In this document: positions 1-864 of the stretch, in pieces | How positions within the stretch are numbered: the first letter of the stretch is position 1 | Layout of the letters: every line of letters begins with the position of its first letter | Assembly (NCBI RefSeq): GCF_003334335.1 | Contig: NZ_QOWQ01000142.1 | DNA length: 864 bases | Strand: one strand, 5' to 3' | Origin: Escherichia coli | GTDB taxonomy: Bacteria > Pseudomonadota > Gammaproteobacteria > Enterobacterales > Enterobacteriaceae | The notes under the pieces: model-generated | Databases searched by the model: none | Told to the model about the DNA's origin: nothing | Seen by the model: only the letters and a program-made list of their open reading frames with translations | Translations under genes and position numbers: made by a program

Positions 1-204
1 GGGACAACGCCACGCTCCGTTAACGCGGTAAACCCCGGTGTGTATCGTTTTTGATTATCCCCGCACACTCGCGCAGAGGAGTCTCCCGGTAGGGCTGCGG
101 TCTCTGTTCATGTGGGAATACGGCGACGATACTGCGCAAAGACATGCTTCAGAAATACATAAGTAAACTAAAATATTGTATCTCTGTGGCTAATTACGTA
201 AATT

Positions 205-228
205 GGTGGCTTGGCCCCTTTAGCCACC
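205..228 (-). terminator. Candidate stem-loop, possibly an intrinsic terminator, about 35 nt downstream of the Rz stop
   Basis: GGTGGCT (205..211) and AGCCACC (222..228) form a perfect 7-bp GC-rich inverted repeat around a 10-nt loop. On the minus-strand transcript the stem is followed by AAUUUACGUAAUU, a weak and interrupted U-tract. On the plus strand no U-tract follows. Confidence 0.25.
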
Positions 229-262
229 GGCAAATCTTCAGCGGATTATCCTTGGCCGGTTT

Positions 263-736
263 TTATCTGAGGCATTGCTCACGAATGTATAGCTGTGCCC
301 CTTCCAGCTGCTTCTGCATTGTCATCAACCGTTCTCTGAGGATGAAATAATCCCGTTCAGCGGCGTCTGCCAGTCTGGGGCCGGTTGCATTATCCACGCC
401 GGAGGTGGTGGGGGCTTCACGCACGGAGCCTGGACAGGTGGCGTTGATCCGCAGGCGCTTACGACCAGCGGCAACGTCAGCGCGAAGAGTTTCATTTTCA
501 GCTCTCGCATCGGCTAATTCCCTCGAGTATTTTGCATCGAGCGCAGCAACATCGCGCTGGCGCACCTGCATATCAGTAATGGTTGCGTTCGCCAGCTTCA
601 GTTCACTGGCTTTGTTATCGCGCTGCGCTTTGTAGGTAATCGCGTTATCACGGTAATGGTCTGTTGCCATCCACAGCGCTCCACAGGCCACCAGCAGAAT
701 AACGATAAACGCGGAAAGCATTCGGTTTATGTTCAC
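263..736 (-). CDS. Rz: Rz-family i-spanin (inner-membrane spanin subunit, annotated in many genomes as phage endopeptidase Rz/RzpD-like)
   Basis: The 157-aa ORF starts at GTG 736..734 and ends at TAA 265..263. It has a short N-terminus with one Arg, then a hydrophobic transmembrane segment ([19 protein letters not shown]), then a charged, Ala/Arg/Glu-rich periplasmic domain. From memory it aligns closely with lambda/P22 Rz: motifs [75 protein letters not shown] and a C-terminal EQC are all shared. Two periplasmic Cys are present (INATC and EQCLR), matching the disulfide-forming Cys of lambda Rz. An alternative start is ATG 721..719, giving 152 aa; neither start has a strong Shine-Dalgarno. 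Confidence 0.9.
325..510 (-). CDS. Rz1: Rz1-family o-spanin (outer-membrane lipoprotein spanin subunit), embedded in the +1 frame of Rz
   Basis: The 61-aa ORF (ATG 510..508) lies wholly inside the Rz gene in the +1 frame. It has a lipoprotein signal peptide with a charged n-region (MRELKMK), a hydrophobic h-region ([10 protein letters not shown]) and a lipobox VSA|C (Cys20, codon 453..451). The mature 42-aa peptide is very proline-rich (11 Pro) and carries a second Cys (Cys30). From memory, the mature segment [29 protein letters not shown] is nearly identical to lambda Rz1. GAGGG lies 9 nt upstream of the ATG. An alternative start is ATG 495..493 (MKLFAL..., 56 aa). Confidence 0.85.
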
Positions 737-864
737 CCCAGCAGCCCCGACGAAGACAACATCATCCAGGCCATGGAAAGAAAAAGAGCAACCAGCATTA
801 GTGAAAATGAAATGCCGACAATTACACAGAGGATCTTCGCCAGCGTTATGAGTTTGTCTGACAT
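733..864 (-). CDS. Hypothetical small single-pass membrane peptide (43 aa) upstream of and overlapping the Rz start; function unknown
   Basis: The ORF runs from ATG 864..862 at the window edge to TGA 735..733 and encodes [43 protein letters not shown]. It has a short polar N-terminus, a hydrophobic stretch of about 28 residues consistent with one transmembrane helix, and a short Ser/Gly tail. Its stop overlaps the Rz GTG start in a GTGA arrangement, which suggests translational coupling. The ORF was too short for the supplied ORF track. Its ribosome-binding site lies outside the window, and the ATG could be internal to a longer ORF. Confidence 0.35.

Follow-up and report, generated by a model that had tools for sequence, protein, structure and literature searches.

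An embedded lambda-type Rz/Rz1 spanin gene pair in the lysis cassette of a lambdoid Escherichia coli prophage

On the minus strand of the 864-nt stretch of E. coli DNA analysed here (the window), positions 263-736 are read, with a probability of about 96%, as a lambda-type two-component spanin of embedded architecture, in which the Rz1 o-spanin gene lies inside the Rz i-spanin gene, within the lysis cassette of a lambdoid E. coli prophage. This reading is carried by what was observed of the open reading frames (ORFs) and their frame relation, of family membership, motif conservation and dual-coding constraint, and of the genomic context, and no finding speaks against it. The features are collected in Table 1; every ORF of consequence in the window lies on the minus strand. 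The pair is the last gene unit of a late lysis cassette, in a late region like that of Stx phages and followed by lambda-like head and tail genes. Such a pair is already known textbook biology, as an example of embedded genes, and is not a new finding; it has little weight as a discovery given that the allele family is present in approximately 40% of complete E. coli genomes, that is, in thousands of genomes.

Table 1. Features of the 864-nt window (positions count from its first nucleotide)
Feature	Position	Strand	Remarks
orf43	733..864	minus	43 codons; single-helix membrane-peptide ORF; starts exactly at window edge (ORF list)
Rz i-spanin gene	263..736	minus	157 codons; GTG start 734-736, TAA stop 263-265 (ORF list)
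Rz N-terminal membrane helix	665-721	minus	approximately residues 6-24; from hydropathy
Rz periplasmic Cys C101	434-436	minus	aligned with lambda Rz C99
Rz periplasmic Cys C155	272-274	minus	aligned with lambda Rz C152
Rz1 o-spanin gene	325..510	minus	61 codons; ATG start; wholly inside Rz (ORF list)
Rz1 signal peptide		minus	residues 1-19; predicted
Rz1 lipobox VSAC (V17-S18-A19-C20)	451-462	minus	predicted lipidated Cys20; Gly at +2
Rz1 second Cys, C30	421-423	minus	aligned with lambda Rz1 C29
Rz1 penta-proline P33-P37	400-414	minus	aligned with lambda P32-P36
Shine-Dalgarno-like GAGGG	519..523	minus	inside Rz coding sequence, 8 nt upstream of Rz1 ATG; putative, read off the sequence
Non-coding stretch, Rz stop to cos/terminase region	1..262		no convincing gene; bor absent

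At least 10 complete E. coli genomes carry the window on the chromosome with 100% identity, and four complete genomes deposited for phages of the PhiR12 series match it at 99% identity, with K-12 MG1655 or E. coli C given as the host; a literature search on the PhiR12 phages found nothing relevant. Related sequence was present in 2219 of 5426 complete E. coli genomes, with 2 places per genome as the median and 13 as the maximum. In both a genome copy (L001) and a phage copy (L002) of the locus, the genes follow one another in the direction of transcription as the Q antiterminator, a nanS-p-type esterase, DUF1378, DUF826, a 71-aa class II holin, YdfR/DUF1327, a 177-aa lysozyme, orf60, orf43 and Rz(/Rz1), and then, after approximately 556 nt, the terminase genes Nu1 and A and lambda-like head genes. 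The sequence-only reading had placed the pair in a late or lysis region of a prophage and had pointed to holin and endolysin genes upstream and terminase or bor-like genes downstream. This placement was borne out, with holin and lysozyme upstream and cos and terminase Nu1/A downstream, while bor is absent here. The N-terminus of the lysozyme is hydrophobic and rich in Gly and Ala, resembling a SAR domain, and SAR endolysin plus pinholin is the combination in approximately 99% of Stx phages (PMC8136144).

Between the lysozyme gene R and Rz, orf60 (L001 6879-7061, minus strand; 60 aa) lies 15 nt past window position 864, carries a C-terminal hydrophobic segment and matches PHROG 1115, a family of unknown function. 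It fills the gap in which Stx phages such as VT2-Sakai have ant/Rha, and the R-Rz spacer is a swappable mosaic slot.

The alternative that survives best is that both genes are intact but belong to a prophage that is defective or cryptic, so that the cassette is a remnant never used in lysis, which we regard as unlikely. It draws on the number of matching places in E. coli genomes (as many as 13 in one genome), many of which are likely remnants, and on the pseudogenes of the representative prophage, in which YdfR, between holin and lysozyme, is truncated and DUF4752, ea22 and DUF551 are frameshifted. The damaged genes are nevertheless accessory only, whereas in a 50-kb view the prophage extends from integrase to tail fibres with the holin, lysozyme, terminase, portal, capsid and tail genes intact, and the cassette recurs at 99% identity in the four deposited phage genomes. 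The representative prophage, whose completeness the earlier reading had left for assessment, thus has its core modules intact and looks complete, and a cassette still functional in lysis is plausible. The prophage carrying the pair is common in E. coli and probably functional.

The translation of Rz matched Pfam PF03245 'Bacteriophage Rz lysis protein' (1.5e-48, model positions 1-125 of 126) and PHROG 13 'Rz-like spanin' (1.5e-73), and direct BLASTP against lambda Rz (NP_040646.1, reference from NC_001416) gave 70% identity. Its Kyte-Doolittle 19-residue hydropathy reaches a maximum of 2.46 at residues 6-24, Arg5 sits ahead of this helix, and no second hydrophobic segment was found; with a single N-terminal helix and the remainder in the periplasm, Rz would adopt a type II topology. 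Besides the two periplasmic cysteines, a third one, C18, lies within the membrane helix. Many database records name Rz 'endopeptidase Rz' or 'phage endopeptidase', labels which we take to be legacy annotation. The reading that they stand for, namely that Rz is a periplasmic endopeptidase and not a membrane-fusion spanin, is very improbable, as PF03245 is the sole Pfam match, a peptidase domain was not detected, and the genetics of lambda Rz/Rz1, with coiled-coil, linker and proline-rich fusion-like domains, support membrane fusion (PMC5295617).

As to the start of Rz, PGAP places it at an ATG at window position 721, against the GTG at 734-736 of the ORF list. In one related allele (L078), the N-terminus reads VSINRIISAF, with the internal Met changed to Ile and the N-terminal extension kept, and in L073/L079 it reads MVSINRILSAF, with ATG-GTG upstream, no internal Met and the extension again kept. 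Because these alleles keep the extension without the internal Met, we prefer the GTG at 736 over the ATG at 721, so that the coordinates given by the earlier reading are better than those of PGAP, whose Rz is probably too short. The NINR/SINR extension gives a positive charge ahead of the helix, like MSRV in lambda. At the opposite end, in some alleles (L010, L073, L079 and L062), the 3′ part of Rz runs approximately 10 residues beyond the C-terminal Cys (QCTKLAFYYPEDI). Lambda Rz does not tolerate truncation of residues 151-152 and can dispense with R153 at its very end only, and these truncation data have been taken as a strict chain-length requirement.

Rz1 starts 226 nt into Rz, which places it in the +1 frame (226 mod 3 = 1), and ends 62 nt ahead of the Rz stop, so that it is fully embedded. 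Its translation matched PF06085 'Lipoprotein Rz1 precursor' (1.2e-21, model 1-40 of 41), with the match starting exactly at Cys20, and PHROG 3198 'Rz-like spanin' (6.9e-31), and was 69% identical to lambda Rz1 (YP_001551744.1, reference from NC_001416) in direct BLASTP. Under the Lol-sorting rule, Gly at position +2 of a lipoprotein predicts outer-membrane localisation; Rz1 has Gly, a non-Asp residue, at +2 and is predicted to be an outer-membrane lipoprotein. The VSAC of Rz1 fits the lipobox consensus [LVI][ASTVI][GAS]C as quoted in PMC6139136. The GAGGG ahead of Rz1 may serve as its Shine-Dalgarno sequence. Hence a gene within a gene in a different frame, both on the minus strand, was recovered as claimed from the sequence, the Pfam, PHROG and lambda matches place both translations in the Rz and Rz1 families, and, as for the intact pair with periplasmic Cys residues and lipobox that had been described, C101, C155, C30 and VSAC all align with functionally mapped residues of lambda.

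Conservation was followed in 83 loci, comprising 80 from viral contigs, the genome copy, the phage copy and lambda, which represent 36 distinct Rz/Rz1 allele pairs and from which Rz1 was extracted by homology. All 83 have an intact Rz1 that occupies the +1 frame, is completely enclosed by Rz and carries the lipobox Cys, the lipobox being VSAC in 82 and VVGC in lambda. Loss of the lipobox Cys or of the frame among homologous loci would have spoken against the pair, and both were kept throughout. The second Rz1 Cys is kept in 81 of the 83 loci. In the two others (L068 and L078), residue 30 is changed from Cys to Ser and the C-terminal Rz Cys is retained; in lambda, the disulfide of either Rz C152 or Rz1 C29 is enough (PMC5295617), and Ser30 is compatible with a natural counterpart of this either-disulfide rule. 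Many relatives have PPAPP in place of PPPPP in Rz1, and the third proline of this run in lambda Rz1 is the position that tolerates Ala (PMC5295617).

To what extent the overlap restricts both genes was quantified by comparing codon positions among 36 unique, indel-free nucleotide alleles. Of the third positions of Rz, 37 of 67 were variable outside the overlap, against 17 of 61 within (Fisher p = 0.002); of the first positions, which correspond to the wobble positions of Rz1, 9 of 67 were variable outside and 16 of 61 within (Fisher p = 0.08). Within the overlap, the length differs internally from lambda by one 3-nt indel only, which leaves both reading frames unbroken and lengthens the linker of each protein by one residue. 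Because of this codon-position pattern and the frame-preserving indel, constraint on both genes is directly visible, and the earlier claim that the arrangement constrains the evolution of both is upheld by the lower variability of Rz third positions inside the overlap. The Rz/Rz1 alleles therefore offer a clean quantitative example of dual-frame constraint.

Rz1 is unannotated in the RefSeq/PGAP genome and in the PhiR12_1 record, and NCBIfam models searched against five ORFs, Rz and Rz1 included, gave no match. The missing annotation and the missing NCBIfam model are annotation gaps and not evidence of absence; Rz1 is routinely overlooked by automatic annotation (PMC8136144, PMC6139136). That Rz is real and the embedded +1 ORF a chance open frame and no gene, as its lack of annotation by RefSeq/PGAP and the PhiR12 depositors and the artefactual nature of another ORF overlapping Rz (antisense, 405-635) might suggest, can be dismissed as next to impossible in view of the two family matches, the 69% identity to an experimentally characterised protein, the intact frame with lipobox in 83/83 loci, the reduction in Rz third-position variability inside the overlap only, and an indel whose length is divisible by 3.

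The antisense ORF at 405-635 (plus strand, 76 aa) was itself considered as a third overlapping gene and rejected, despite a match to PHROG 35444 (6e-40) and an open frame in 84 of 85 loci. Its openness is a by-product of the amino-acid composition of Rz, because only two codon contexts, before Q38 and Q60, allow a synonymous antisense stop, and PHROG 35444 itself is probably an artefact built from antisense gene calls.

Directly upstream of Rz, the TGA stop of orf43 overlaps the Rz GTG start in the sequence GTGA, an overlap that suggests translational coupling. The peptide has a hydropathy of 2.89 at residues 11-29, and its ribosome-binding site is the strong AGGGAGG. Its sole family is PHROG 4906 'unknown function' (2.1e-23), the annotated genome lists it as the hypothetical protein WP_001280932.1, and all 115 database clusters matching it are hypothetical except two labelled 'membrane protein', with every named one from E. 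coli; a literature search for the peptide or its accession found nothing relevant. In 79 of the 83 loci it is intact, of constant length and next to Rz on the upstream side, with 17 protein alleles down to approximately 65% identity, and by tblastn it adjoins Rz upstream in 276 phage records, nearly all from Stx or lambdoid phages of E. coli/Shigella, where it is usually unannotated. Variable sites by codon position number 20, 14 and 21 of 43, which does not clearly point to purifying selection, although a membrane helix such as that of orf43 would be expected to show first-position changes between hydrophobic residues. We offer only as a doubtful conjecture that orf43 is an undescribed accessory component of pinholin/SAR-endolysin cassettes; such a role could be, for example, that of a modulator of lysis timing, SAR-endolysin release or spanin accumulation. 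It may also simply be a coupling leader that sets Rz expression. Conserved and mostly unannotated in Stx-type phages, orf43 poses a small question for phage-lysis specialists.

Beyond the Rz stop, searches of 1..262 against PHROG, NCBIfam and Rfam gave no matches. Window positions 23-138 are common to lambda and most relatives in the coverage profile of the 83 loci and are 76% identical to lambda 46868-46981, a non-coding interval flanked by bor and lambdap78. Farther left, 106 nt from window position 1 (L001 5884-5895), is the lambda cosN sequence, which reads AGGTCGCCGCCC on this strand. Segment 151-262, by comparison, is a rare mosaic common to only 5 of the 83 loci, and most relatives have a longer insert there. 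The mosaic junction spans 141-288, where similarity to most relatives stops at approximately 282-288 and returns at approximately 140, with the break falling among the 8 terminal codons of Rz (LYIREQCLR vs EYIRTQCLK in relatives). A plus-strand ORF at 144-350 (68 aa) was rejected as a gene, having no family match and lying mostly in the segment common to 5 of the 83 relatives.

RNA of the minus strand at 150-262 folds slightly better than shuffled sequence (z = −2.6, with 1 of 200 shuffles as good), against z = −1.5 for the plus strand, and contains a GGTGGCT/AGCCACC hairpin at 204-230, 3′ of the Rz stop; neither a T-tract nor a terminator call was found for this fold. A scan of the window for promoters and terminators returned one promoter-like match at chance level and no terminator, Rfam with permissive thresholds found nothing in the whole window, a repeat search found short, chance-level repeats only, and a PADLOC defence-system search of Rz, Rz1, orf43 and orf60 gave no match.

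How the pair would act can be proposed by analogy with lambda, from which topology, lipidation, disulfides, complex formation and membrane fusion are transferred here (PMC5295617, PMC6139136). Rz would sit in the inner membrane with type II topology, its periplasmic domain forming a coiled coil, and Rz1, translated from the embedded +1 ORF, would be a small proline-rich lipoprotein anchored by its lipid in the outer membrane. Each would form disulfide-linked homodimers, and the C-termini of the two proteins would interact to give a complex spanning the periplasm. Once holin and endolysin have removed the peptidoglycan mesh, this complex would collapse and fuse the inner and outer membranes, which would complete lysis.

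In practical terms, the value of the locus lies in annotation, with Rz1 missed by RefSeq/PGAP and by phage depositors alike and the PGAP Rz probably too short.

Compared with known systems, the pair resembles lambda Rz/Rz1 in the nesting of Rz1 within Rz in the +1 frame, in its place at the end of the lysis cassette, in the N-terminal transmembrane domain and both periplasmic Cys residues of Rz, and in the 19-residue signal peptide, lipobox Cys20, second Cys, PPPPP and conserved core starting AWIMQP of Rz1. Lambda genetics have assigned homotypic disulfides to Rz C99/C152, and roles to Rz1 C29 and PPPPP (PMC5295617). Lambda Rz starts with ATG and overlaps the stop of R, whereas the Rz of the window starts with GTG and overlaps the stop of orf43; the latter has two extra residues in the N-terminal/transmembrane region and ends in QCLR instead of QCR, with one residue more before the terminal Arg, and the lipobox of Rz1 departs from the lambda VVGC. 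Unlike in lambda, bor is not present downstream, and the partners are a holin annotated as class II and a lysozyme with a SAR-like N-terminus, in place of lambda S105 and R.

The Stx phages 933W and VT2-Sakai ('pham 1301' of PMC8136144) have Rz proteins 83-85% identical to that of the window, although with a different N-terminus, MNRVLCVV. They share the late backbone of Q, nanS-p esterase, DUF1378, DUF826, S, R and Rz/Rz1, as well as an orf43 homologue directly upstream of Rz, which in VT2-Sakai lies in the ant-Rz gap. In VT2-Sakai, Rz and Rz1 are both explicitly annotated, ant lies between R and Rz, and bor lies downstream; in contrast, the representative locus has no stx genes, orf60 replaces ant/Rha and bor is absent. 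Its head and tail module is lambda-like with cosN, against a podoviral one in 933W. Among Stx phages, Rz/Rz1 occur in 277 of 279, paired with a SAR endolysin and a pinholin (PMC8136144).
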